In this document: in pieces, positions 15,571 to 26,231 of the stretch
How the letters are laid out: each line of letters opens with the position of its first letter
Position numbering within the stretch: the stretch's first letter is position 1
IMG/VR virus record: IMGVR_UViG_3300046318_000439
Span: 64,001-128,000 of that record
Length of the DNA: 64,000 nt
Reading direction: 5' to 3' (one strand)
Source of the DNA: a virus
Taxonomy: Duplodnaviria; Caudoviricetes
Notes under the pieces: generated by a model
Told to the model about the DNA's origin: nothing
Seen by the model: the letters and a program-made list of their open reading frames with translations, nothing else
Database searches by the model: none
Program-made: the position numbers and the translations under genes

Positions 15571-16203
15571 TTAACATACAAGAGCTTTATGTGTTAATTC
15601 TGCTTTAGGGAAACCAAAGTATTTGGCTTTCCAATCGTTCTGTGCAAATCCGACTAAAGAAGACCATTCGTCCTTCTTTTCTATTAATCGCTTCGCTGCG
15701 TTCTCCCAATCTGTGGCAAGAACAAACTTCTCGATGTTTTCCTTATAGGCAGTACACTCCTCTGATGTGTGAAAATCTTGCTCGATGTGGATCACTTCAA
15801 ATATTTCCTCTCCATCGAAGTAATCTAGGGCAAGATCCAATCCCCATTTTTGTTTACATTGTAACAAATAGCTTAGCTTGGGAATCTGCGGTTTGAATGA
15901 AAGAAGTTGCTGTAAAGCATCTTCCGTGAAATTGCATCGGTGGAGAACAGTGCAATGGTCTAATATGAACCCTTTAGGTTGATTAGACAAATGCATCCAA
16001 GCTTCTTGGAATGCATTATGATTTAGTATTTCATTATAGACTGGATAACCATTCACCCAATAGTACTCTCGTTCGAGTTGGGTTAATTCGAATCCGTCTT
16101 TATCAAAGTAATTAGTGGCCTGTGTTAACAGCTTATGCTGCATCACCGGCGCTTTGCATGTTGGGTTTTTATACACCAACGCATGTTTATTTACAGTGAA
16201 CAT
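15571..16203 (-). CDS. Hypothetical protein
   Basis: Long ORF; ATG at 16203 follows a CATAAATA late-promoter-like element. Confidence 0.7.
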   Translation of the reverse strand: MFTVNKHALVYKNPTCKAPVMQHKLLTQATNYFDKDGFELTQLEREYYWVNGYPVYNEILNHNAFQEAWMHLSNQPKGFILDHCTVLHRCNFTEDALQQLLSFKPQIPKLSYLLQCKQKWGLDLALDYFDGEEIFEVIHIEQDFHTSEECTAYKENIEKFVLATDWENAAKRLIEKKDEWSSLVGFAQNDWKAKYFGFPKAELTHKALVC

Positions 16204-16278
16204 AGATTTATTTATGCTTTTTCTATGTCCAAACAACTACTTTTTGTAGTTCCTTATTATAAACAAGGAGTTACTGTT

Positions 16279-16347
16279 GGTGGGTAATTCTGTTACGAGG
16301 AAACCCACCGAAACCCTAAGCAGTGTTTAGGCTGCTAATGCGAACTT
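16279..16347 (-). ncRNA. Displaced original 3' segment of the tmRNA coding piece (remnant)
   Basis: Reads AAG TTC GCA TTA GCA GCC TAA (KFALAA*), hairpin GCAG/CTGC, then pseudoknot AGGG/TCCT plus GGTGGGT/ACCCACC. Confidence 0.8.
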
Positions 16348-16360
16348 AAATGTTTGAATT

Positions 16361-16368
16361 TATAAATA
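16361..16368 (+). promoter_or_regulatory. Late promoter TATAAATA of the GIY-YIG endonuclease
   Basis: Exact consensus, 33 nt upstream of ATG 16401 (AGGGA RBS). Confidence 0.8.
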
Positions 16369-16400
16369 GCATTATCATATACTTTTATAGGGAAAACAAC

Positions 16401-16952
16401 ATGACAGTTCATTTTGTATATATGTGGTTTGATCGTGTGCGCAAAATGTTTTACGTCGGTCAACATACTGGATCTCTGAATGATCAATACACTTCTTCTT
16501 CACGTTGGCTAGCTGGAGAGATACGTTATCGTCCAGCCGACTTTAAACGTCGCATCATTCGTACATTCAGGACTAAGCATGAAGCTCAGCTATATGAAGG
16601 CAGACTACTAACGCTCATCCGATCCAACGAGTTTGGCTCGAGGTATTATAACCTGAAGATGGGTGCACCTAAAGGCAACTTGCCTTGGAATGCTGGTAAA
16701 ACTAATGTATATTCGAAAGATACGTTAGATAAAATGTCGACCGCCAAAAAAGGACGGCCTTCTCACAATAAAGGTAAACTGAGCCCACTATCAGCCCAAA
16801 ACGGTAAAAAGGGAGCTTCAAAGCTCGCCAAAACTGTAACAGGGAGAAGAATGGCTACTAGGCTAGATGGTACACGGTACTGGATATATCCAGATGTAGA
16901 TTGTTTGGGTGATAAGGAACAATCTACAAATCCTCATTCGATCACTGCTTAA
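16401..16952 (+). mobile_element. Free-standing Seg-like GIY-YIG homing endonuclease gene inserted antisense in tmRNA
   Basis: FVYMW...KMFYVGQHTG...QYTSSS catalytic module, FKRRII, YYNLK, NUMOD-like PWNAGKT/MSTAKKGRPSHNKGK tail. Confidence 0.82.
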
Positions 16953-17091
16953 GCAGCGAGAGCGAAGCGGCTATCATTAGCTGCAATTACATTTATTTGC
17001 TTCTTCGGCCGAGTGTCCTCAACCCTATCGTCTTTCACATTGACGTGTTGCCGTCTCTACTATCTCACGCTGTCGAAACTGTTTCAGGCCC
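16893..17091 (-). ncRNA. ssrA: tmRNA coding piece (permuted two-piece tmRNA), tag AANDSRFALAA
   Basis: 5' GGGCCTG pairs with 3' CAGGTCC-ACCA including G3.U70; TTCGAC D-loop motif; CAGCGTG pairs with CATGTTG of acceptor piece; tag codons 16984-16949. Confidence 0.92.
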
Positions 17092-17152
17092 AATAGAAAG
17101 TATACTACAGCTTTCAGTTACGATACCCCGTAGCACCCCTTAATATACTTTC
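17092..17152 (-). ncRNA. tmRNA intervening segment
   Basis: 61 nt between CCA end and mature 5' end, closed by 9-bp inverted repeat GAAAGTATA/TATACTTTC. Confidence 0.8.
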
Positions 17153-17210
17153 TGGTGGACCTGCCCGGTACTGCCCCGGGGTCCAACATGCCTTCGCTTT
17201 GAAGGGATTA
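17153..17210 (-). ncRNA. ssrA: tmRNA acceptor piece
   Basis: ...CATGTTGGAC CCCGG GGCAGTA CCGGG CAGGTCC ACCA; T-arm with non-canonical GGCAGUA loop; 5' boundary approximate. Confidence 0.88.
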
Positions 17211-17321
17211 CAACAATTCTTTTTTACGAGTTACCAAATGGTATATTACCCAAAAATATATATTAACTGTAGTAGCAATGCCCCATATAAAGGTCCAGTG
17301 CCAGTAGTCTATTAGTATCAT
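17208..17321 (-). CDS. Small hydrophobic protein (37 aa)
   Basis: MILIDYWHWTFIWGIATTVNIYFWVIYHLVTRKKELL*; below ORF-track cutoff. Confidence 0.4.
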   Translation of the reverse strand: MILIDYWHWTFIWGIATTVNIYFWVIYHLVTRKKELL

Positions 17322-17333
17322 AATTATTATATA

Positions 17334-17561
17334 TTAAAATGGAGCGTCAGGCAAGCTATTTAACCACTTCTGCTTCTCAAACTTTGGTTTCTTTAGCTTG
17401 GCTATCTCCGTCAGTGTCAAAGAAGGATCGCCGTTCATAAAGTGTTCTGCATCCTCACGAGAGAAGAACCGCCGAAGCGGTCCGTCCTCATCACTTACTA
17501 CGAATCTACGAACTGGTCTGAATGGCTCAGGCAGCTTCAGCAAATGTAACGGCAGTTTCAA
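17334..17561 (-). CDS. Hypothetical protein
   Basis: ORF track; start uncertain. Confidence 0.5.
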   Translation of the reverse strand: MKLPLHLLKLPEPFRPVRRFVVSDEDGPLRRFFSREDAEHFMNGDPSLTLTEIAKLKKPKFEKQKWLNSLPDAPF

Positions 17562-18477
17562 GAGCTTTTACCTTTAAGTTCTTATTAGCACCAAACCATG
17601 CTGACTGCAAGCGTGTGTCTGCTGAGCGACCGATTTCATGGTCAGTCAAATATGTCACAGCATTAAATGCTTGCCACCAGCTACCTTCTGCAAACTTATG
17701 ACCTGGTTGTGTATTCAATACTTCCAAGGCACGGGTAGCAGACTTTGACAACTCTTTACGTTGTGGGCCTTTTTCTTTATTGTAGGCAAGCACTGGGAAG
17801 ATTGAGTTAAAGTATTCTTTAACAGACTCACCATTGTAACGCTTGCTACCCAAGAATGCAGCCATCTCTTTGTACTTCGCCAACTTCTCAGTAGCAATAC
17901 CAAGAGTTTGTTTCACTTCATCAGCATCAAACACTGTGCGGTGGTTTTTCTTAACCATGCGATCAGCTTTTTGGTTGAGTGATAATGTTAGCGTGTTATT
18001 GCATACAACACGAATGGGAGTAAAGCGAACATCGATGCATTGACCGAACCGATGAGGATTTGTAAACAGTAGATATGAATCAACTTGATCTCCTTTAAAT
18101 AATTCAAATGAATCTTTGACCTTAGCCAAAGCCCATACGATCTGTCCATTTCTTAATGAACCAGCTGTATGCATTTCCATATCACCAGCTTTACAGTATT
18201 CATCAAAGAAGTTAAATGCTTCATGGTTCTGAACTGGGTTCCATTCATTAGACACAACGCCTAAGATAGAATCATCAGAAGAGCGTGTTAGGGCAGACCA
18301 ACCAACATTCACTTGATTACCATTAATATCAGCAAACGCTGGAATCTTTTCTACTGTCCAATCTAAACCAGCCTTTTGTAACATCTGAGCAGGAGATAGG
18401 TCGCTAGGAACTCGCTCGCCTAAACCGTGCCATGGTAATTCGCCTGCATATGCCATTGTTTCAATTTCGTGCGCCAT
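17527..18477 (-). CDS. DUF932-family phage/plasmid protein
   Basis: MAHEIETMAYAGELPWHGLG, MHTAGSL..G..VWALAK, FTPIRVVCNNTL, WWQAFNAVT. Confidence 0.88.
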   Translation of the reverse strand: MAHEIETMAYAGELPWHGLGERVPSDLSPAQMLQKAGLDWTVEKIPAFADINGNQVNVGWSALTRSSDDSILGVVSNEWNPVQNHEAFNFFDEYCKAGDMEMHTAGSLRNGQIVWALAKVKDSFELFKGDQVDSYLLFTNPHRFGQCIDVRFTPIRVVCNNTLTLSLNQKADRMVKKNHRTVFDADEVKQTLGIATEKLAKYKEMAAFLGSKRYNGESVKEYFNSIFPVLAYNKEKGPQRKELSKSATRALEVLNTQPGHKFAEGSWWQAFNAVTYLTDHEIGRSADTRLQSAWFGANKNLKVKALETAVTFAEAA

Positions 18478-18542
18478 AATATAATCCTTTTCATAATATA
18501 ATCAAAAAACGGTCATGACCACTTTTTCACAACCATGAGTCT

Positions 18543-18571
18543 ATTATCACGTATTTCTCACAAAAAGGCAA
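18543..18571 (-). promoter_or_regulatory. Early sigma70-type promoter TTGCCT-N17-GATAAT
   Basis: 17-bp spacing; upstream of DUF932 gene. Confidence 0.65.
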
Positions 18572-18756
18572 CAGGCTAGAAAAGCGCGTAGTTACGTACC
18601 CTATTAACCTCTTTCAAAATAACGTCGCATTCCTCTGGTTTTAAGTCCCCGGATTTTTTCTGTTTTTCCACCTCACCAACAAGCGCCATCAGCAGCTTAG
18701 GCCGGTTTTTTAGTACATGGACGCTCGCAATAAAAAGGTCGCGACTTCTGCTCATA

Positions 18757-18969
18757 TTATAAGTTATCCTTCACATGCTGTATTATAAGAGCGGCTTCAA
18801 GCATATCGCTCTTAGCCACATAATTCTCGACTTCGTCAATAATAGATGAATATATCAGAGCATGGAGCTCAATCATCTCCTCTTCAGACAATCTCTCTAG
18901 TAAACGCTCACTCACCCATTTCTTAAGAGGGATCCCTTTGTAATGTGTAGGAGTTCTTTCTTCCATCAT
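18757..18969 (-). CDS. Hypothetical protein
   Basis: ORF overlapping neighbour by ATGA. Confidence 0.65.
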   Translation of the reverse strand: MMEERTPTHYKGIPLKKWVSERLLERLSEEEMIELHALIYSSIIDEVENYVAKSDMLEAALIIQHVKDNL

Positions 18970-19202
18970 TCACCTTTCGGTAACGTGTTGTGATTATCAT
19001 TATATAGACCCATTGCCTCTGCATCACGAGACATCATTTCTAATACAATACGTCCTGCTGTTAGTTGATAGAATCTTCTCAGATCCGTTTCATTGCCAAT
19101 CACTACATGCCAGTTATTTGCTTTGTCAAGAGAAACAACAAACCCTGCTTCCTTAGCAATCTGCAACAACCCCTCTGTAGTCTCAAACCTTTTGTCTGTC
19201 AT
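18966..19202 (-). CDS. Hypothetical protein
   Basis: Translationally coupled ORF. Confidence 0.65.
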   Translation of the reverse strand: MTDKRFETTEGLLQIAKEAGFVVSLDKANNWHVVIGNETDLRRFYQLTAGRIVLEMMSRDAEAMGLYNDNHNTLPKGE

Positions 19203-19384
19203 TACATCATCTCCATGTCTACTACCTGCTTGGCTACGTGGTAATGCTTTGAAGAAACAACTCCCAATGTGTCCTCAATCATTTGATAGGCAGACAACCA
19301 ATTCTTATATGGGCCTGCAACATACTCATATTGATCACTCTTTGAGAATGACTTCACCACATAGTACAATTCAATCTTCTTCAT
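19202..19384 (-). CDS. Hypothetical protein
   Basis: Translationally coupled ORF with GGAG RBS. Confidence 0.6.
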   Translation of the reverse strand: MKKIELYYVVKSFSKSDQYEYVAGPYKNWLSAYQMIEDTLGVVSSKHYHVAKQVVDMEMM

Positions 19385-19452
19385 AATATAAACTCCAGTG
19401 GATTATTACCGACGTTTCCTATAATACAGGAAAACGCAATATTAGGCAACCG

Positions 19453-19539
19453 CCCCGTAAAAAAATTTCAATGGCGCGTGAATGTTGAATTCCGGATTGC
19501 ATTTTTGTCTGGGTCCCCCCGCAAAAAAATTTCAGATGG
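19453..19539. repeat. Direct repeat CCCCG(T/C)AAAAAAATTTCA x2, 64-bp spacing, in non-coding DNA
   Basis: Copies start at 19453 and 19517. Confidence 0.8.
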
Positions 19540-19617
19540 GGAAGGGATTGGACTTCGTTGTATATACGCGTCCGGCGTGTTCTGATCCCGAAATAAAAAA
19601 TACCCCCCTATGCCTTC

Positions 19618-19881
19618 TCAGACACCGAGTCCCATCCCAGCAAAACAGAAGTCATTCGCCTTTTTCAGCATCCTGTCCTTATTCATCGCTGTTTCGATTG
19701 AATTGATGATTGCATCCTTCGTTGGCTTGTTCCCACCACCAGACTCCACTAAGGCAATACAATACTGTCTGAACTGTTCCATGCCCATATCACTATACGC
19801 TTGATAAAGAGAACGTAAACCATCTTCACCAATAGTGTCGTTCTTTAATCTGCTCTTACTGCTAGACTGTGTATCATACAT
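19618..19881 (-). CDS. Hypothetical protein
   Basis: ATG 19881 overlaps upstream stop (ATGTATGA). Confidence 0.65.
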   Translation of the reverse strand: MYDTQSSSKSRLKNDTIGEDGLRSLYQAYSDMGMEQFRQYCIALVESGGGNKPTKDAIINSIETAMNKDRMLKKANDFCFAGMGLGV

Positions 19882-20167
19882 GCTTACATACTCCTCTATA
19901 CTTGAACCCTGGACATGTGCACTTATTATCATGCACGTAATATACATCGCCCTTAGAACCAATCACCTTTTTATCGTACTCTACTTCTTCTAGGATTTCT
20001 GCCTTATTAAACTTACGGCCACGAATATCGAATCTGATCGGCTGTTTGAAAGTAGTCTCTTCACCATTAGAAGCCTTGATATACCCATAACACTTTGATA
20101 AATCAGCGGATAGCTTATACGTGTGATTTGGCCACTCCCAATCAGTCACCTCTACTGCTAATATCAT
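19874..20167 (-). CDS. SWIM zinc-finger protein
   Basis: C-terminal CTCPGFKYRGVCKH (CxC...CxH). Confidence 0.8.
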   Translation of the reverse strand: MILAVEVTDWEWPNHTYKLSADLSKCYGYIKASNGEETTFKQPIRFDIRGRKFNKAEILEEVEYDKKVIGSKGDVYYVHDNKCTCPGFKYRGVCKHV

Positions 20168-20361
20168 GACGCGAAAATATCCTTGCTTAGAATTTCGTCT
20201 TCTACCAACTGATTACATGCATTCAATGTCATCTGAAAAATCATGTAAGCATTCGCCTTTTCTTGAGCAGGTAATCTTTCGATTTGTTCAGCAATCACCT
20301 CTAATGTTGGTGTCACAAAAAGGTTTGACCTTGGGATTGGATTTTCAACTGTGTTATACAT
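20164..20361 (-). CDS. Hypothetical protein
   Basis: Coupled ORF. Confidence 0.65.
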   Translation of the reverse strand: MYNTVENPIPRSNLFVTPTLEVIAEQIERLPAQEKANAYMIFQMTLNACNQLVEDEILSKDIFAS

Positions 20362-20573
20362 TATACTAACTCCTCTTCTTCACAAGTAGCTACTACCTCT
20401 AAACTATCACCAGCTTGCATGAAACTAGCAAAGTCTCTCATCGCGAACATTAGATTGTTATCATAATCATCAGAACCTTCTAAACCTAAATCATATGAAC
20501 CAATCACACAACCTGTACTACCCTTCATAATCAATTTCATTTTCATTCCCTTTTCTTCACTTGATGTAATCAT
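20361..20573 (-). CDS. Hypothetical protein (true start probably about 20546)
   Basis: Follows early promoter and GAAAAGGGAA RBS. Confidence 0.6.
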   Translation of the reverse strand: MITSSEEKGMKMKLIMKGSTGCVIGSYDLGLEGSDDYDNNLMFAMRDFASFMQAGDSLEVVATCEEEELV

Positions 20574-20603
20574 TGTCCCTTTTTATCACAAAAAGGTCAA
20601 CTG

Positions 20604-20837
20604 TTAATCCCAACTTTTCTTACCACCGAATTCTTCGTTCCAATCGTAACCAGCTAGGTAAGCATCACGCTCTTCATCAGTTAATTCAGTAATCGCTTCT
20701 GTATCATAACTACCACCAACGTAGTAATGTGGCTTACGAGGACGGTCATACCAACTATCAGCTGAACCACGGTCAAACGGGCCACCATGACGGTTATCGT
20801 ATAACACACCTTTGTATAACGTTACATTATCAATCAT
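20604..20837 (-). CDS. Hypothetical phage protein
   Basis: HGGPFDRGSADSWYDR...YLAGY motif; own promoter and RBS. Confidence 0.75.
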   Translation of the reverse strand: MIDNVTLYKGVLYDNRHGGPFDRGSADSWYDRPRKPHYYVGGSYDTEAITELTDEERDAYLAGYDWNEEFGGKKSWD

Positions 20838-20924
20838 CTTATTCCCTTTCTTTAACTTATGAATCTATTATCCGGGTTTATGACAAAAAGGTCAACAGGG
20901 CAGATCCTATCGATTATACAGGAA

Positions 20925-20958
20925 AAAAAGAACCCCGGTCCAACGAAGGTACCGGGGT
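20925..20958 (-). terminator. Rho-independent terminator
   Basis: CCCCGGT-accttcgttgg-ACCGGGG stem followed by TTCTTTTTTT. Confidence 0.8.
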
Positions 20959-21079
20959 GTGAAGGCCTTGTTTTTTAACAAGACTAGGGGAAAGGTGGTG
21001 GTAATGTGATGTATTGCAACATCCTCTTGACTGCTGCTACAGTCTTTCAGCCTAGCGTCAAGGCATCCTACTTGGCATC

Positions 21080-21146
21080 ACCATATTGAAGCACACGGGC
21101 CTCTGATCAGACTTATAACGCCTAAGCCGATGTGCTTCAATATGGT
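21080..21146. repeat. Hairpin 1: 16-bp stem, 35-nt loop, shares the tRNA CCA end
   Basis: CCATATTGAAGCACA (21081) / TGTGCTTCAATATGG (21131). Confidence 0.85.
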
Positions 21147-21219
21147 AACCTGTACGGGATTCGAACCTGTGAATGCCACCGTGAAAGGGTGGTGACTTAA
21201 GCCACTTGTCGAACAGGTT
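21143..21219 (-). tRNA. tRNA-Glu (TTC)
   Basis: Cloverleaf AACCTGT/ACAGGTT, anticodon loop CTTTCAC, GGTTCGAATCC, encoded CCA. Confidence 0.95.
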
Positions 21220-21226
21220 ATATTAC

Positions 21227-21291
21227 CATATTGAAGTACACTATCTCTACTTAAAGTTTATCGCTAGCGACACACAATGTACTTCAATATG
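21227..21291. repeat. Hairpin 2: 14-bp stem, 37-nt loop
   Basis: CATATTGAAGTACA (21227) / TGTACTTCAATATG (21278); compensatory change relative to hairpin 1. Confidence 0.85.
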
Positions 21292-21390
21292 TGCTCGTTT
21301 GCGAATCATCCCGATTGGCTTAGAGCTTTGCAGTCATCACCTGCATGTCTTTACGCTTCCCAGCGATAGACTACGATGTACGAATGAATC

Positions 21391-21531
21391 TTACGAGGCC
21401 AACTCGCCTTTAAAGTAAACACGAACCGTGCCTGGAGCTGACGGACTAACTAAAACTGCTTCAGTCGTCTCACAGTAAGTGTCACGCTCTGTTGCAAATA
21501 ACACGAATGATGCGATTGCTGCTGATTCCAT
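21391..21531 (-). CDS. Small hypothetical protein (46 aa)
   Basis: MESAAIASFVLFATERDTYC...GELAS*; AAGGAG RBS and own promoter. Confidence 0.6.
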   Translation of the reverse strand: MESAAIASFVLFATERDTYCETTEAVLVSPSAPGTVRVYFKGELAS

Positions 21532-21565
21532 ATTCTTTCTCCTTAACAAAACCATTATCTAACAT

Positions 21566-21736
21566 TTAAACGAATAAGTCAACACTCTCGAGTTCAGAAG
21601 AACGAATCTCCAACAACTCCTTATTCGCATCTTCAATTGCTTCAGGAGAATCCAAATACTCCTGATACTCCAACTCAGCACAGTATGCCTCGTAACCAGC
21701 TGTGTCTTCAATTTGAATATCGTCGAATGAGTCCAT
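21566..21736 (-). CDS. Small acidic protein (56 aa)
   Basis: MDSFDDIQIEDTAGYEAYCAE...; own promoter and GAAAGGG RBS. Confidence 0.65.
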   Translation of the reverse strand: MDSFDDIQIEDTAGYEAYCAELEYQEYLDSPEAIEDANKELLEIRSSELESVDLFV

Positions 21737-21790
21737 TTTGTTTCCCTTTCAATTTAATATAATTCATTATCCCGAAAAAGTACAAAAAGG

Positions 21791-22060
21791 TCAACTGCTC
21801 AAATTCATCACACGACCTGGATATTCCATGAAGTCAACTCTCCAAGGAACGAACACTGTCTGACCAACACGACTATGTTTACCTTTTGGTTGCTCTTCAC
21901 CACCATACACATCTTTAGTCACGGTAATCTTATATGACTGAAAGTACTCTTCATTGCAGTTTACAATCTCAACAATACCTTCTACGAAACAATCACCACG
22001 ACCGTCCATTGGTTTGAAGTCGTAAGATCTGATTTTATCGCCTTTTTTCACTTGTAACAT
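21791..22060 (-). CDS. Hypothetical phage protein
   Basis: KGDKIRSYDFKPM...CFVEG; own promoter and RBS. Confidence 0.75.
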   Translation of the reverse strand: MLQVKKGDKIRSYDFKPMDGRGDCFVEGIVEIVNCNEEYFQSYKITVTKDVYGGEEQPKGKHSRVGQTVFVPWRVDFMEYPGRVMNLSS

Positions 22061-22141
22061 TTTGTTTCCCTTTCTTCACTGTATGGATACAGTATCCCGG
22101 AAAAAGGACAAAAGGTCAACAGGGCCAAAAGGCCCTATTAA

Positions 22142-22414
22142 TCAACGATTTACATTCAAGCTTGGCTCACGTTGCTCGATCATATCGCGCTCATGGTCGC
22201 GAGCTTCACGTTGAGTTTTGAATTCTGCTAACAAAACTGTGTAGAAACTCTTGAACCCATCGCGTGCAATTGCTCTAGATAGTGGCGTATGTGTTCTATC
22301 CCCACATTTCGCGTGGGATTTATGACGAGCCATACGAGCTTTGAGATCTCCAGTCATGCCGATGTACGATTGACGTGGGTTCTTTGAGTTAATTAATTGA
22401 TAAACAGCGTACAT
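22142..22414 (-). CDS. Small GIY-YIG nuclease-domain protein
   Basis: YAVYQLINSKN...SYIGMT..LKARMARH...E. Confidence 0.8.
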   Translation of the reverse strand: MYAVYQLINSKNPRQSYIGMTGDLKARMARHKSHAKCGDRTHTPLSRAIARDGFKSFYTVLLAEFKTQREARDHERDMIEQREPSLNVNR

Positions 22415-22878
22415 TATACAGCCTCCTTAGCAGTTTGTGTTGCTAAAAAGTTCTTAGCATTGTGAAAATACGTCGTTGCACCAGCTTTTGACATACTCAA
22501 TTCAGTCATAATCGCTTCGATGGCCACAGATTTGTCTGTAGTACCGAGTTTCTGCACGATTTCATACGCTTTTGCTTGCTTAGTACCGGCCTTAGCGCCA
22601 CGTAATACGCGCGTTGAACTAACTTTCATACCTACTGCTTCGATTTTCATGCTCATTTTGCTTCCTTTTTCACGTTTAATTGGTGTTACTACTGTTAACT
22701 CTTTGTCTTTAGTGGGTTTTTTCTTCTTATCAGCTGGATAACCAGGATATGTTGAAGTCATGTCACGTGTATTGTCCATCAACCACTCGTTATAATGCTT
22801 CAATCTATCTGTTAACTCTTGCTGATGAGGGTCACTATTACGGACTACCACTTCATCTTTCACTCTATTCTTCTTCAT
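22414..22878 (-). CDS. Hypothetical protein
   Basis: ORF track; C-terminal MSKAGATTYFHN helix motif. Confidence 0.65.
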   Translation of the reverse strand: MKKNRVKDEVVVRNSDPHQQELTDRLKHYNEWLMDNTRDMTSTYPGYPADKKKKPTKDKELTVVTPIKREKGSKMSMKIEAVGMKVSSTRVLRGAKAGTKQAKAYEIVQKLGTTDKSVAIEAIMTELSMSKAGATTYFHNAKNFLATQTAKEAV

Positions 22879-23428
22879 ATATTCCTTTCATGGCAGCGTC
22901 ATAAGCTTCGAGTTGTTCTACTTCCTCTCTGGTTTCTAATATCTCACTAATACCCCACAGCTCATCCATGTACTCCGGAACATCCTCGCCAATCTCATAA
23001 CAGTCATCATCACCATTATTCCACTGGCCTACGAAATTCATTCCAGGCTCGAAGTAATCGAGTACTACTGAATCAAAACCATGGCCGCCCAGCTTCTCAA
23101 TTAAAGCTATCGGTGGACTCCATGCTGTATCGAATGAAGCTATGATGTAGCCAGGGCCTTCCTCTTGAATGACACCACCACTGATGTCCCACTTCGTTCC
23201 CCACTCAGCCACACTGAATGAGTACCAGTCTGCATATCCATACTTCTCAATCAAGGCCTCCGCCTTCGGAGCATCTTGTGGTCGTGTAGGGGAAGTAGTA
23301 TCTCTCAACTCGCCTGGCATAGAGAAGAATGCATCACACAGCCTGTCATTCTCGATAGCAGTCTTCGCACGTTCCACTAACCCTTGAGGGCCTTCTAGTC
23401 TCAAATAGTTATTGCACCAGTTAGGCAT
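22865..23428 (-). CDS. DUF1281/YubB ferredoxin-like domain protein
   Basis: MPNWCNN, WGTKWD, FDTAWSPPI, YFEPGMNFVG motifs. Confidence 0.8.
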   Translation of the reverse strand: MPNWCNNYLRLEGPQGLVERAKTAIENDRLCDAFFSMPGELRDTTSPTRPQDAPKAEALIEKYGYADWYSFSVAEWGTKWDISGGVIQEEGPGYIIASFDTAWSPPIALIEKLGGHGFDSVVLDYFEPGMNFVGQWNNGDDDCYEIGEDVPEYMDELWGISEILETREEVEQLEAYDAAMKGIYEEE

Positions 23429-23732
23429 CAGCTGTCTCCTCGAATGAATCTACAATAGCATCCAACACTTCTTGTACTCTCTCAGATTCTGCTGTGTACA
23501 TTACATACTCACCATACTGCTTCACAAACTCTGAATCGATATACTCAAAGCCACCATAGTAATCTAAACTACGACGACGGTCAGCTGGAATAATAATACA
23601 TTCATAGTTGTACCAGAATAGACCAATTGCTCTCTTATCCAAACCAGTCGTTCTTGGTTCACCCTGCTTACAGTTCTTGTCGATAAAATCTTCAACAACC
23701 GTATTCACTTTATCATCTAAATCCATAATCAT
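23421..23732 (-). CDS. Hypothetical protein
   Basis: Own promoter and RBS. Confidence 0.65.
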   Translation of the reverse strand: MIMDLDDKVNTVVEDFIDKNCKQGEPRTTGLDKRAIGLFWYNYECIIIPADRRRSLDYYGGFEYIDSEFVKQYGEYVMYTAESERVQEVLDAIVDSFEETADA

Positions 23733-23786
23733 AATAATTCCCTTTCTTCACTTTATAAACCATTGTCCCTTATTTTGACAAAAAGG

Positions 23787-24029
23787 TCAACTGGCCTCAA
23801 ACAGCTCGTCAATTGCAGCTCTATTGAACGGAAACTCACGACGACGTTCAATCTCAGACTCTAATAGTGTCAAATATACTTCATCCGTCACTGACTTAGA
23901 TTGTAGTTCAGAATACAACTGATATGTTCTCACCAAATACTCATCTGACAAGTCAGTAGGATGTTTAGTCATACCAGATTCGAATCTTTCTTGAATAACT
24001 GCTTTACTCATCATCAAACACCTCTTCAA
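23787..24029 (-). CDS. Hypothetical protein
   Basis: Stop TGA lies in the next -35 box. Confidence 0.6.
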   Translation of the reverse strand: MKRCLMMSKAVIQERFESGMTKHPTDLSDEYLVRTYQLYSELQSKSVTDEVYLTLLESEIERRREFPFNRAAIDELFEAS

Positions 24030-24177
24030 ATTCGTTCATAATCAACATATCTTCAATCATATCAAAAGTCATATAACCAAGACAGGCCAACAACATTGTA
24101 CGAGCATCAATCATTCCTACATCTACCAACTCAATCGCTCTATCACGAGGATTGATATTCACTTCTGTATAACTCAT
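24004..24177 (-). CDS. Small hypothetical protein (57 aa)
   Basis: MSYTEVNINPRDRAIELVDVGMIDARTMLLACLGYM...; own promoter and RBS. Confidence 0.65.
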   Translation of the reverse strand: MSYTEVNINPRDRAIELVDVGMIDARTMLLACLGYMTFDMIEDMLIMNEFEEVFDDE

Positions 24178-24233
24178 TTTCACCCTTTCTTCAACTTATG
24201 AACCATTGTCCCATAAAAAGGTCAAAAGGTCAA

Positions 24234-24527
24234 CTAGAATGAAAACCGCGAGTAGTAGCGGATTGGAGTGCGTTCTAAATGCGAGCTTTTGTATTTCAGC
24301 TCTTTTCCGAACTTTTGCTGATATGCCTGCATAAACGTAGCAGCATCACAATCTTCTTCCAAATAGACAGTATCACCCTTCATATATGAGTATGGTGTGA
24401 TTCTCTCCAACACGTCCAAGAAGACGAGCTCAGATCTCTTAACAGCCAACCAACCATGGCCAGGGTCACAGTGGAAGATATATTGTTTCTTACTCATACG
24501 ATACTTGTAGTTATAGACAAATTTCAT
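24234..24527 (-). CDS. Hypothetical phage protein
   Basis: FHCDPGHGWLAV...YSY..GDTVYLEEDCDA motif. Confidence 0.75.
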   Translation of the reverse strand: MKFVYNYKYRMSKKQYIFHCDPGHGWLAVKRSELVFLDVLERITPYSYMKGDTVYLEEDCDAATFMQAYQQKFGKELKYKSSHLERTPIRYYSRFSF

Positions 24528-24712
24528 GACTCCTCCACATCAGCAAAGAATTCACGACCAACTTGCATGAATCTCATATAAGCTGAGATTTCATGTGGTT
24601 CGAAATCACCTAGATTATCACCCATGTACTGTACCGTCTCTAATACACCTTCGCCATGGTCTTTAGCTAATTGCTGGATGATCTCACATGCTCTAGCGAT
24701 ATCCATACTCAT
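24524..24712 (-). CDS. Hypothetical protein
   Basis: Coupled ORF. Confidence 0.65.
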   Translation of the reverse strand: MSMDIARACEIIQQLAKDHGEGVLETVQYMGDNLGDFEPHEISAYMRFMQVGREFFADVEES

Positions 24713-24927
24713 ACTACCTCCAAATTCATCATTTTAAAGTATCCATCATTACCAGGAAGCAAACAACCACTCAACTTCTTACCGTCCTGATCTGTAATCT
24801 CTTGAACCAACAACCAGGGAATTGTATCACCAGCAGCATTCAAGTCCAAGTTAATATTAGTCACCTTACCAGTAAGAGTACCAGCTTTAGCAACCCACTT
24901 TAATGTATTACCGATTTCAATCTTCAT
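24709..24927 (-). CDS. Hypothetical protein
   Basis: AAGGGG RBS. Confidence 0.65.
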   Translation of the reverse strand: MKIEIGNTLKWVAKAGTLTGKVTNINLDLNAAGDTIPWLLVQEITDQDGKKLSGCLLPGNDGYFKMMNLEVV

Positions 24928-24939
24928 CTTTACCCCTTA

Positions 24940-25107
24940 TTAGTAATTCGTAATCACATTTTCAATCAATTCAGCAATCAGATCTGAATTATACTCATAA
25001 GACTCAAAGTAAGACTGAATGTCAGCTTTTACAGTATCCAAATCCAACTCCATCTCATTACATAAAATCTGCAACTTCTTTTCATCAACATTAATTGTAA
25101 TATTCAT
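24940..25107 (-). CDS. Small hypothetical protein (55 aa)
   Basis: MNITINVDEKKLQILCNEMELD...; own promoter and RBS. Confidence 0.6.
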   Translation of the reverse strand: MNITINVDEKKLQILCNEMELDLDTVKADIQSYFESYEYNSDLIAELIENVITNY

Positions 25108-25198
25108 CTTTACCCCTTTTGTATTAATATATGACCAGTATCCGTTTTTTTAACAAAAAGGTCAACAGGCCTACAAACACCAGCAAGATCCGGAGGGG

Positions 25199-25271
25199 TT
25201 GACTTAATTACGTTTTTCTGGGAAAATGGTTTTAATGATTCGAACAGCATACTCTGGGGATGGACGTGGAG
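25199..25271 (+). repeat. Left (remnant) copy of promoter plus 35-nt transcript start
   Basis: TTGACT at 25199; 25237-25271 matches 25831-25865 at 29/35 nt, both 38 nt from their -35 box. Confidence 0.8.
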
Positions 25272-25282
25272 ATATGGTTTAT

Positions 25283-25290
25283 TATAAATA
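25283..25290 (+). promoter_or_regulatory. Late promoter TATAAATA of the HNH gene
   Basis: Exact consensus followed by AGGAGG and ATG 25308. Confidence 0.85.
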
Positions 25291-25307
25291 CCACAGGAGG
25301 ATGCAAA

Positions 25308-25796
25308 ATGAATGATAATGAACTGTATGAATTGTTCCATAGTAAGTACCGATATGAAGATGGTCAATTGATATCCAAACTAACTGGACAAGCAATCAAA
25401 AACAAAGCAACACGATATTTAAAATGTGAGCTTAAAATTAATGGTAAGACACACAACTTCAGAGTGCATAGAGTTATATTTCTGATGCATCATGGATATC
25501 TACCAACAATCGTCGATCACATCGACCGCGACATATACAATAACCGGATAGAGAATTTAAGAGCAGCTAGTCACAGTCAGAATAGCCAGAATCGCGGTGC
25601 GCAGTCAAACAACAAACTAGGTGTGAAGGGCGTATGTTTGAACACATCAAATAATGCCAAAAGCAAACCATACGCGGCCTTCATAAAAGCCAACGGCAAA
25701 AGATATCGAATCGGCTCTTTTGAAACCATCGAAGAGGCCTCTCGCGCTTATAACGACCATGCATCGTTGCATTTTGGTGAATTCAAGTCCAGTTGA
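25308..25796 (+). mobile_element. HNH homing endonuclease with AP2 DNA-binding domain
   Basis: VHRVIFLMHHG..P..VDHIDRDIYNNRIENLR, NNKLGVKGV, YAAFIKANGKRYRIGSFETIEEASRAY; opposite orientation to neighbours. Confidence 0.9.
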
Positions 25797-25821
25797 CCTT
25801 TTTGTCCTTTTCCCGGATAAT
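25793..25821 (+). promoter_or_regulatory. Early promoter TTGACC-N17-GATAAT overlapping the HNH stop
   Basis: HNH TGA (25794-25796) is inside the -35 box. Confidence 0.8.
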
Positions 25822-25827
25822 GATTAC

Positions 25828-25915
25828 ATAGATTTGAAGAGCTAACTCTCGGAATGGACGTGGAGGGTGGCCAACGATTCCTGGGTGCGCGAAAATTGGA
25901 GTCGGCTCTCCCACA
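25828..25915 (+). ncRNA. Candidate small structured RNA (alternatively 21-aa ORF 25855-25920)
   Basis: Stems AGAGCTAACTC/GAGTCGGCTCT and GGAAT/ATTCC; bracketed by convergent promoters. Confidence 0.5.
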
Positions 25916-26033
25916 TTAACAGTATCCCGGAAAATGGTCAAGAGGTCAACGGATATGCTTACATCTCAGTCAAGTATTATTCAGCTGTTGACATTTTTTT
26001 CATAAACACGGATACTGTATAGAGTGACGTATT

Positions 26034-26231
26034 GTGCGTCTAATATTACATTATATGATTATATCGAGAAAACAAGCAATATTAGAATTAATAGAATATG
26101 ACATTAATGATATTAAATCTCTCAAGAAAAAGGAGATGTTATCATTAATCTCTGACCTATTATCAGACAGGTATTATGAATATACTAATGAAACCCTGTC
26201 CGATGAATATGTGGAGAAGATTATAGGATAA
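26034..26231 (+). CDS. Hypothetical protein
   Basis: ORF downstream of TTGACA-N17-GATACT promoter at 25988-26016. Confidence 0.5.
   Translation: MRLILHYMIISRKQAILELIEYDINDIKSLKKKEMLSLISDLLSDRYYEYTNETLSDEYVEKIIG

Follow-up and report, generated by a model that had tools for sequence, protein, structure and literature searches.

How can the gene for a homing endonuclease occupy the end of a phage transfer-messenger RNA (tmRNA) gene and leave that RNA gene in working order, with no intron to be spliced out? The question is raised by a 64-kb stretch of DNA, here called the window, which covers bases 64001-128000 of a 202-kb IMG/VR phage record (IMGVR_UViG_3300046318_000439) with direct terminal repeats. 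A T4-type Gp23 capsid protein is encoded by the record (E 1e-153). Two loci of the window were studied, a GIY-YIG endonuclease gene at the tmRNA gene (16401-16952, locus 1) and an HNH endonuclease gene (25308-25796, locus 2). A preliminary description had proposed that both are cassettes of one architecture, which insert into RNA genes without splicing and repair them with a recoded copy of the severed part; the sequence features on which it drew are present in both loci. Taking the two loci together, we consider it likely that locus 1 is one example of a widespread Seg-like cassette at the tmRNA 3' end of freshwater T4-like phages, and that locus 2 is an HNH gene placed in a slot flanked by repeats.

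The tmRNA gene of locus 1 is permuted (two-piece) and was predicted by ARAGORN on the minus strand (17245-16858) with the tag AANDSRFALAA*. It scores 112 bits against the Rfam family tmRNA_permuted (RF04321), where the gathering threshold is 47. Combining ARAGORN, Rfam and a reading of the strand, we place the working gene at 16895-17245 (-). Its acceptor piece runs as far as a CCA at 17153, and its coding piece begins at 17091 and contains the tag (16984-16949) and the 3' module (16948-16895), which consists of helix 5 around the stop and a pseudoknot-hairpin. The pseudoknot-hairpin has a perfect 11-bp stem (16928-16918 / 16905-16895) and has kept its pseudoknot partner, and the acceptor stem with its G3-U70 pair is intact although it has changed relative to the relatives. 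A sigma-70-like promoter, TTGCCT-17-TATAAT, is predicted upstream of the gene at 17326-17354 (-) with 10 of 12 consensus matches.

The nuclease gene (16401-16952, +) is free-standing and lies on the strand opposite to the tmRNA. It encodes a Seg-like GIY-YIG protein of 183 amino acids (PHROG 314, E 1e-12). In Pfam, GIY-YIG (E 0.0055) and SegE_GIY-YIG were matched only at E 0.006-0.008, below the cut-offs; a sequence search of the PDB with this protein gave no match. Residues Y7, Y18, G20, R44, E66 and N84 are invariant in the alignment of the nuclease family and, judged by its sequence, the gene is intact with all catalytic-type residues kept. The stop codon of the nuclease and the stop codon of the tag share the TTAA at 16949-16952, as the preliminary description had noted in placing the nuclease stop inside the restored element, and the final 54 nt of the tmRNA, its 3' module (16948-16895), are encoded antisense to the last approximately 19 nuclease codons. 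At the Rfam gathering thresholds no intron family, and no Intron_gpI, was found anywhere in the window.

Upstream of the nuclease gene, a T4-type late promoter box, TATAAATA, is predicted at 16361-16368 (+) from sequence counts and alignment. The box occurs four times in the 64 kb against a chance expectation of 5.8, and two of the four copies stand 32 and 17 nt upstream of the start codons belonging to the GIY-YIG gene and the HNH gene, respectively. At locus 1 it aligns with cTAAATA of other occupied alleles and with the A/T-rich linker that precedes the tag in intact tmRNA alleles.

On the far side of the nuclease gene from the working tmRNA lies a second, broken tmRNA end (16278-16347, -), hereafter the relic. 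The tmRNA 3' modules of this phage group were sorted into types A, B and C; the working module of the window is of type A and the relic of type B. In relatives, the type-B module consists of a tag end (K/R)FALAA*, helix 5 and a terminal hairpin, contiguous with the rest of the tmRNA. The relic has the same parts, with the tag end (K)FALAA*, and agrees at 90-96% identity with the 3' end that is contiguous in tmRNA genes lacking the nuclease (L004, L010, L021, L024 and others). A repeat search within the window did not detect this repeat, which is too diverged and was shown by the comparison with relatives. Beyond the relic, weak residual homology extends to about 16368. The late promoter, which had been placed 11-13 nt inside the junction, is present, but the relic seems to run on in degenerate form through TATAAATA and not to stop 13 nt short of it.

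An identical contig of 1129 nt from an independent freshwater run matches window bases 16307-17435, with relic, nuclease and tmRNA, and the occupied arrangement is therefore not an assembly artefact. The public runs that match locus 1 are freshwater metagenomes. Among GenBank phage records (INPHARED), the flanks of locus 1 gave only distant protein-level echoes (Methylophilales phage Melnitz and the Sinorhizobium phiM12 group), and locus 2 gave no match.

For comparison we retrieved 80 related loci through the flanking DUF932 gene, most of which carry a permuted tmRNA just downstream. Alignment of these relatives confirmed the empty sites expected from the preliminary description, as contiguous tmRNA 3' ends were found in close relatives. 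Besides the type-B alleles named above, type-A modules without a nuclease are found in L009/L231, L226, L227, L229, L232 and L234, and a type-C module without a nuclease in L002, the closest relative (DUF932 95% identity). Uninterrupted alleles of types A, B and C thus exist, and the lack of such alleles, which would have told against the preliminary description, was not observed. In contigs from other metagenome runs, position 16338/16344 is joined directly to 17044/17045, so nuclease-free relatives co-occur with the occupied form. The distribution of the nuclease is patchy: it is absent from the closest relatives by DUF932 (L002-L007 and L033, 95-86% identity) and present in L008 (84%) and L360 (81%). 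The DUF932 marker is itself missing from most nuclease-bearing contigs.

The proposed insertion into an RNA gene without splicing is borne out by the nuclease gene having a complete tag and 3' module to one side and, to the other, a broken module that has been stranded. The bespoke recoding that was part of the same proposal is not borne out. The working module is an ordinary type A, which also occurs in six nuclease-free contigs, and synonymous differences of the same kind in the FALAA codons separate nuclease-free alleles from each other. On these comparisons the apparent recoding of FALAA is allele replacement or ordinary allelic variation, not design de novo.

The family to which the nuclease belongs was collected with a profile built from five nucleases, which was run on IMG/VR and gave 312 relatives. 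Counts were made on the 50 closest homologues (at least 43% identity), which comprise 31 distinct sequences. A convergent permuted tmRNA whose tag stop lies 1-46 nt from the stop of the nuclease is found in 25 of the 31, a type-B hairpin at most 160 nt upstream of the nuclease start in 23, and both together in 18. Homologues below 43% identity do not adjoin a tmRNA.

The working module beside these nucleases may be of any of the three types, whereas the relic is almost always type B. Where the working module is type A (tag AANDSRFALAA, with the nuclease reading frame running through the module), the TTAA overlap of the two stops also occurs in L323 and L351-356. Where it is type C, a nuclease of about 130 amino acids ends 2 nt ahead of the hairpin. 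In L333 and L341 it is type B, so that type B stands on both sides of the nuclease. Since the relic is nearly constant while the working module is of three types, the relic travels with the nuclease. All relics share derived changes, GACGAAA in the middle of the tag having become TTTyA and the A/T-rich pre-tag linker cTAAATA (TATAAATA in the window), which points to one founding event with the relic travelling along with the nuclease since.

The limits of the shared unit were read from comparisons of the window with L323 or L233. The outer end of the relic hairpin (16277/8) is exactly where homology sets in, and it is lost around 17000, some 15 nt before the resume codon is reached in the upstream direction from the tag side. 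Within it, promoter and nuclease are about 74% identical in nucleotides and 47-58% in amino acids, and the tag module is 87-93% identical between occupied alleles, while the tmRNA bodies and the neighbouring genes are unrelated, a pattern consistent with co-conversion of flanking markers. The nearest homologues of the nuclease (L324 and L328, 71-74%) adjoin a tRNA array and not the 221-aa gene found in the window. These boundaries, the unrelated flanks and the nuclease-free nearest relatives together fit intronless homing in which the relic supplies right-hand homology to type-B recipients.

That the tmRNA gene might simply be dead, its function destroyed by the nuclease insertion and both tag ends being decaying debris, seems to us very improbable. 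It would agree with the overlap of the working 3' module and a protein-coding frame, and no RNA dataset was found among the public runs matching 16200-17300. The score of 112 bits, far above the gathering threshold, and the intact acceptor stem with G3-U70 speak for a living gene. So do the perfect 11-bp stem and the retained pseudoknot partner, which covary with those of nuclease-free alleles: the type-A module is kept with compensatory stem changes in six nuclease-free and two occupied contigs, the stems reading GTAGATTGTT, GCAGGTTGTT and TCAGGTTGTT, each with the matching partner strand. A distant lineage (L050, L051, L058 and L078, 33% identity) adds a further point. There, too, the nuclease and the tmRNA 3' module overlap and the tag stop has TTAA in common with the nuclease, but the lineage has no relic. 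In L078 (7915-8118) the GIY-YIG gene is truncated to 67 amino acids by a deletion that took its middle and C-terminal coding part, that is most of the gene, but spared the tmRNA 3' module. L078 thus carries a decaying cassette, which is consistent with selection on the RNA.

Even less probable, in our view, is an integrase-type island with the repeats as attL and attR, or a self-splicing intron, in place of a free-standing endonuclease. Both have precedents at this kind of gene, as tmRNA 3' ends are classic integration sites of islands, where the displaced end is replaced by a copy in the element, and group I introns with endonuclease genes are known in tmRNA T loops (PMC11915505). At locus 1, however, the shared unit of 0.7 kb (16277-17000) holds a single open reading frame (ORF), the GIY-YIG gene, and no integrase or recombinase gene. 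The Rfam search detected no intron in the window, the site of insertion is the tag and 3' end while the T loop and the rest of the T arm are left uninterrupted, and nuclease and tmRNA are on opposite strands.

The anatomy, the empty sites, the recurrence throughout the family and the module boundaries are observations; from here on we infer cleavage, immunity and arm function. In the intronless homing that we favour, the travelling unit would be approximately 16277-17000, comprising in tmRNA sense the working pre-tag, tag and 3' module, the convergent nuclease gene, the late promoter and the broken type-B copy. Late in a mixed infection, tmRNA alleles without the nuclease would be cut by it in the tag or close to it, and the occupied allele would serve to repair the break. 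Of the two broken ends, the left would pair in the pre-tag region or the tmRNA body, and the right, formed by the 3' hairpin of the recipient itself, with the broken type-B copy. By this pairing the relic would act as a portable homology arm, and from the comparisons above it is probably a built-in one. The recipient would then hold the donor's working module, the nuclease and a relic derived partly from its own old end, and its tmRNA would stay functional without splicing, through the imported module. The diverged tag and the broken relic are presumed to be uncuttable. As essential tmRNA sequence lies inside the nuclease ORF, deletion of the nuclease gene would be hindered.

One nuclease-free contig may bear the trace of a lost element. 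In L232 (around 2941-2960, minus as stored) a type-A module is followed directly by a shortened type-B-like hairpin, GGTGGGT...ACCCACC, and this arrangement looks like the scar of a lost nuclease cassette.

Several points weigh against this account of locus 1. The cut site and the immunity are pure inference. The tmRNA bodies share only about 15 nt upstream of the tag, which is a difficulty for transfer of the cassette between them, and 8 of the 31 distinct occupied alleles are without the type-B hairpin. In the 23 that have it, the hairpin is about 95% conserved although the nucleases are only 43-74% identical, and such strong conservation may reflect another function, as an operator or 5' element.

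The stranded type-B copy could accordingly be a working part, either an operator that represses the nuclease's late promoter or a 5' stem-loop or processing signal of the downstream gene, a reading that we hold possible but rather doubtful. Besides the conservation of the hairpin, the promoter box lies within or beside the relic, and the relic stands directly before the ribosome-binding site of the next gene in the window, in L233 and in L008. There is also a precedent in I-TevI, which represses its own late promoter at an operator that resembles its homing site and lies over the promoter (PMC2988022). As with I-TevI, a target-like, presumably uncut sequence is found at or beside the late promoter of the nuclease, but I-TevI is encoded in an intron and its binding has been demonstrated, whereas at locus 1 binding is hypothetical and the target-like sequence is a whole stranded gene end. 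Less easily accommodated is the finding that the homology of occupied alleles in unrelated genomes ends exactly at the outer end of the hairpin, which fits a recombination boundary. Moreover, the best-conserved hairpin is 50-90 nt from the promoter box, and the promoter-side part of the tag is deleted in many alleles. The roles of operator or signal and of homology arm are not mutually exclusive.

A bolder form of the homology-arm reading is that these cassettes are mobile elements of a kind of their own, with the broken tmRNA copy as one of their designed parts; in such an element one copy of the target would keep the RNA gene alive and the other would be a portable arm, possibly also an operator. 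We put this forward only tentatively. If true, the cassette could home into any phage with a matching tmRNA end, whatever its neighbouring genes.

The closest known system is that of T4 SegB and the other free-standing Seg endonucleases; SegB homes in tRNA genes of T4-type phage (PMC2330249). Phage endonuclease genes are known to use late promoters, to embed host signals that favour their retention and to be involved in one-sided, illegitimate break repair (PMC2988022). As with SegB, locus 1 has a free-standing GIY-YIG gene among genes for small stable RNAs, with a patchy distribution and a predicted late promoter; flanking RNA-gene sequence, which is inherited with SegB (PMC2330249, PMC2988022), may be so inherited here. 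SegB lies between intact tRNA genes, whereas the nuclease of locus 1 lies inside the terminal segment of the tmRNA with antisense overlap, bracketed by an intact and a broken copy of an approximately 100-nt tmRNA segment. Integrase islands in tmRNA or tRNA 3' ends resemble it in that a copy in the element keeps the RNA gene intact while the other copy forms a direct repeat. They differ in that locus 1 is 0.7 kb with a single endonuclease gene and without integrase or att chemistry, and its repeats are diverged alleles and not identical att cores. In Aeromonas phage Aeh1, the free-standing endonuclease gene mobE lies inside a functional nrdA without an intron, nrdA being split into two working pieces. 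There a protein gene is split, while at locus 1 an RNA gene is kept whole by a duplicate segment. Group I introns in the tmRNA T loop, some with LAGLIDADG genes, are likewise endonuclease-bearing selfish elements that leave the RNA functional (PMC11915505), but they do so by splicing, while locus 1 is at the tag and 3' end, is without an intron and keeps function through a second copy of the segment.

As endonuclease-bearing invaders of tmRNA genes, PMC11915505 names group I introns, with LAGLIDADG genes, and integrase-type islands, and no others. Full-text literature searches for tmRNA with homing endonuclease or GIY-YIG returned no title pointing to a free-standing nuclease at a phage tmRNA.

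Two further features of the tmRNA genes were recorded. The T loops of this phage group (window 17153-17185; L002-L081 and L226-L234) are mainly of two kinds, canonical TTCRA in 22 distinct cases and alpha-type GGCRGTA in 15. The T loop GGCAGTA of the window had been considered as a mark of a dying tmRNA, which was rejected because the alpha-type loop is likewise found in 15 of 37 distinct T arms of relatives. As the two classes are mixed among close relatives, the tmRNA genes are mosaics of modules, which possibly track host groups. Secondly, three terminator-like hairpins lie antisense in the nuclease ORF at 16739-16826 (-), e.g. GAGCT-TTGA-AGCTC followed by CCTTTTT. They are 65-150 nt beyond the tmRNA 3' hairpin, in a segment of about 41 codons that is absent from L233 and L323, and may end the tmRNA transcript.

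Does the HNH gene of locus 2 follow the same plan? The same order of elements is seen, but the loci are not equivalent, locus 2 being the weaker case. Part of the likeness is not distinctive, since a late promoter, ribosome-binding site and ORF are generic for T4-type endonuclease genes (PMC2988022). The HNH gene (25308-25796, +) encodes an I-HmuI-like endonuclease of 162 amino acids, which matches Pfam HNH_3 with E 3.5e-16 (59 bits, cut-off 24.8), PHROG 99 with E 6e-46 and I-HmuI (PDB 1U3E) with E 0.003. It had been labelled HNH-AP2; the HNH part is upheld by HNH_3, while for AP2 there was no Pfam match up to E 10 and only a weak match to an ERF structure (E 0.19, residues 127-152). A late promoter box, TATAAATA, is predicted at 25283-25290 (+), 17 nt before the ATG, with AGGAGG as ribosome-binding site. 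The stop codon TGA (25794-25796) is part of GTTGACC, which provides the -35 hexamer for a promoter-like site (25793-25821), in agreement with the earlier placing of this stop, too, inside a functional element.

The gene is flanked by a direct repeat of 74 nt (25198-25271 / 25792-25865) with 72% identity between the copies. The left copy (25198-25271, +), found by repeat search and consensus scan, has a promoter-like site at 25199-25227 and the core of a structured motif, TTCGAA-hairpin-GGGGATGGACGTGGAG, at 25239-25271. It is cut off after GGAG and followed by TATAAATA, AGGAGG and the HNH ORF. The right copy is complete (25792-25915, +) and, by the same two methods, comprises the promoter at 25793-25821, a variant core at 25833-25865 and a 3' part up to TCCCAC. 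A convergent promoter-like site facing the right copy is predicted by consensus scan at 25921-25949 (-).

For comparison there is G006 (L209), a nuclease-free relative on whose contig the type-B empty tmRNA site L005 is also found. It carries both repeat copies, 0.5 kb apart, around a 112-aa ORFan with a promoter of its own; the left copy of the window matches its copy 1, and the flanks of the right copy match those of its copy 2. In G002, two copies enclose five small ORFs at a distance of 1.75 kb. One copy each is present in G003 and G004 and none in G001, and the convergent promoter layout recurs in G002 and G006. As G006 and G002 possess two copies although they lack the nuclease, the nuclease need not have made the duplication. 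A target-restoring insertion is therefore not shown at locus 2, where in a relative free of the nuclease the pair of repeats encloses an unrelated gene. The HNH cassette would have replaced the tail of copy 1 together with the ORFan of the relative. It may have come in when the repeats recombined with each other, or else through homing accompanied by long resection.

Recombination of this kind would resemble the promoter-stem-loop (PeSL) shuffling documented in T4-type phages (PMC2839356, PMC4122927). As in PeSL, the small, variable genes at locus 2 stand between early-promoter units of about 100 bp that are repeated, and the relative carries a different gene between the repeats. The repeat of locus 2 differs from PeSL in that it contains a structured motif of wide conservation, has a convergent promoter in several copies and is truncated in its left copy at the border of the cassette.

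The motif consists of TTCGAA, a covarying 3-bp hairpin and then GGGATGGACGTGGAG, and is found in the window at 25239-25271 and 25833-25865. In a pattern scan it was located in many phage contigs that are unrelated in other respects, a few to about 50 nt downstream of consensus sigma-70 promoters; these include L106, L108, L116, L117, L140, L141, L144, L165, L181-L183, L190, L206, L209, L220 and L221. In the hairpin, 98% of the cells are paired and 15 cells are changed on both sides, a level reached in none of 500 shuffles. A second helix of two pairs is also supported, and the variant right copy keeps both helices by paired changes. No family of Rfam 15 matched the motif when 25100-26100 and eight motif-bearing loci were searched with permissive E-values, and a literature search for its sequence returned only unrelated mammalian primers. 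In 185,579 species genomes it is found in only 4 contigs of metagenome-assembled genomes, so that in these scans it is almost confined to phage contigs. A 21-aa ORF from the ATG at 25855 in the motif was tried and rejected, as G002 conserves the nucleotide motif with its helices but not the peptide.

Could this motif be the target of the HNH enzyme, which would have inserted into one copy and be protected by the truncated left copy and a structure-preserving variant right copy? Some details do count against the slot reading and for such a target. The break in the left copy comes exactly at the end of the invariant motif core. The right copy preserves both helices through two pairs of compensatory changes (C>T with G>A, and CAG/CTG to GAG/CTC), whereas the G006 ortholog has the consensus; these would suit a motif-targeting nuclease with an immune allele. 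Highly conserved sequences are also typical targets of endonucleases, and SegB recognises a tRNA T-arm motif (PMC2330249). On the other side, both copies pre-exist in nuclease-free G006 and G002, and the same T-A variant is found in the unrelated contig L206. The motif was found within 1.5 kb of an HNH homologue in 0 of 80 loci, and an exact 22-mer of the left junction has no match elsewhere in IMG/VR, making this junction unique. An exact 20-mer of the right copy likewise has no match in IMG/VR. On balance we find a motif-directed HNH insertion unlikely, though not negligibly so, and prefer the repeat-flanked slot; a logic of bringing one's own target copy may nevertheless apply to the HNH locus too.

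The surroundings of the HNH gene are rich in promoters. By consensus scan, five promoter-like sites of one early type (GTTGACc, 17 nt, GATAmT) occur within 900 bp, in divergent and convergent pairs: 25137-25165 (-), 25199-25227 (+), 25793-25821 (+), 25921-25949 (-) and 25988-26016 (+). The region is a plastic block of small early genes. In L140, L173, L181, L190 and L220, clusters of TTATCCACA-like repeats, which resemble DnaA boxes, stand 100-200 nt after the motif and are accompanied by long stretches without same-strand ORFs, which hints that the motif is linked to a replication origin or control region. In L144 (1194-1514) and L183 (2199-2516), minus strand, the gene divergent from the motif promoter starts with a GIY-YIG-like signature, VIYAA...VYVGLT.

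The answer to the question of locus 1 is therefore that the tmRNA cassette is probably a variant form of free-standing endonuclease (intronless) homing, of which no description was found in the literature searched. It represents a third way into an RNA gene, where a free-standing nuclease supplies a duplicate of the segment that it interrupts, so that splicing is not needed. The arrangement imposes a double constraint, as about 19 protein codons and a pseudoknotted RNA domain are written on opposite strands of the same DNA. Our results suggest that homing of the cassette may explain the shuffling of tmRNA tag and 3' modules among freshwater T4-like phages, and that selfish cassettes may carry built-in homology arms.

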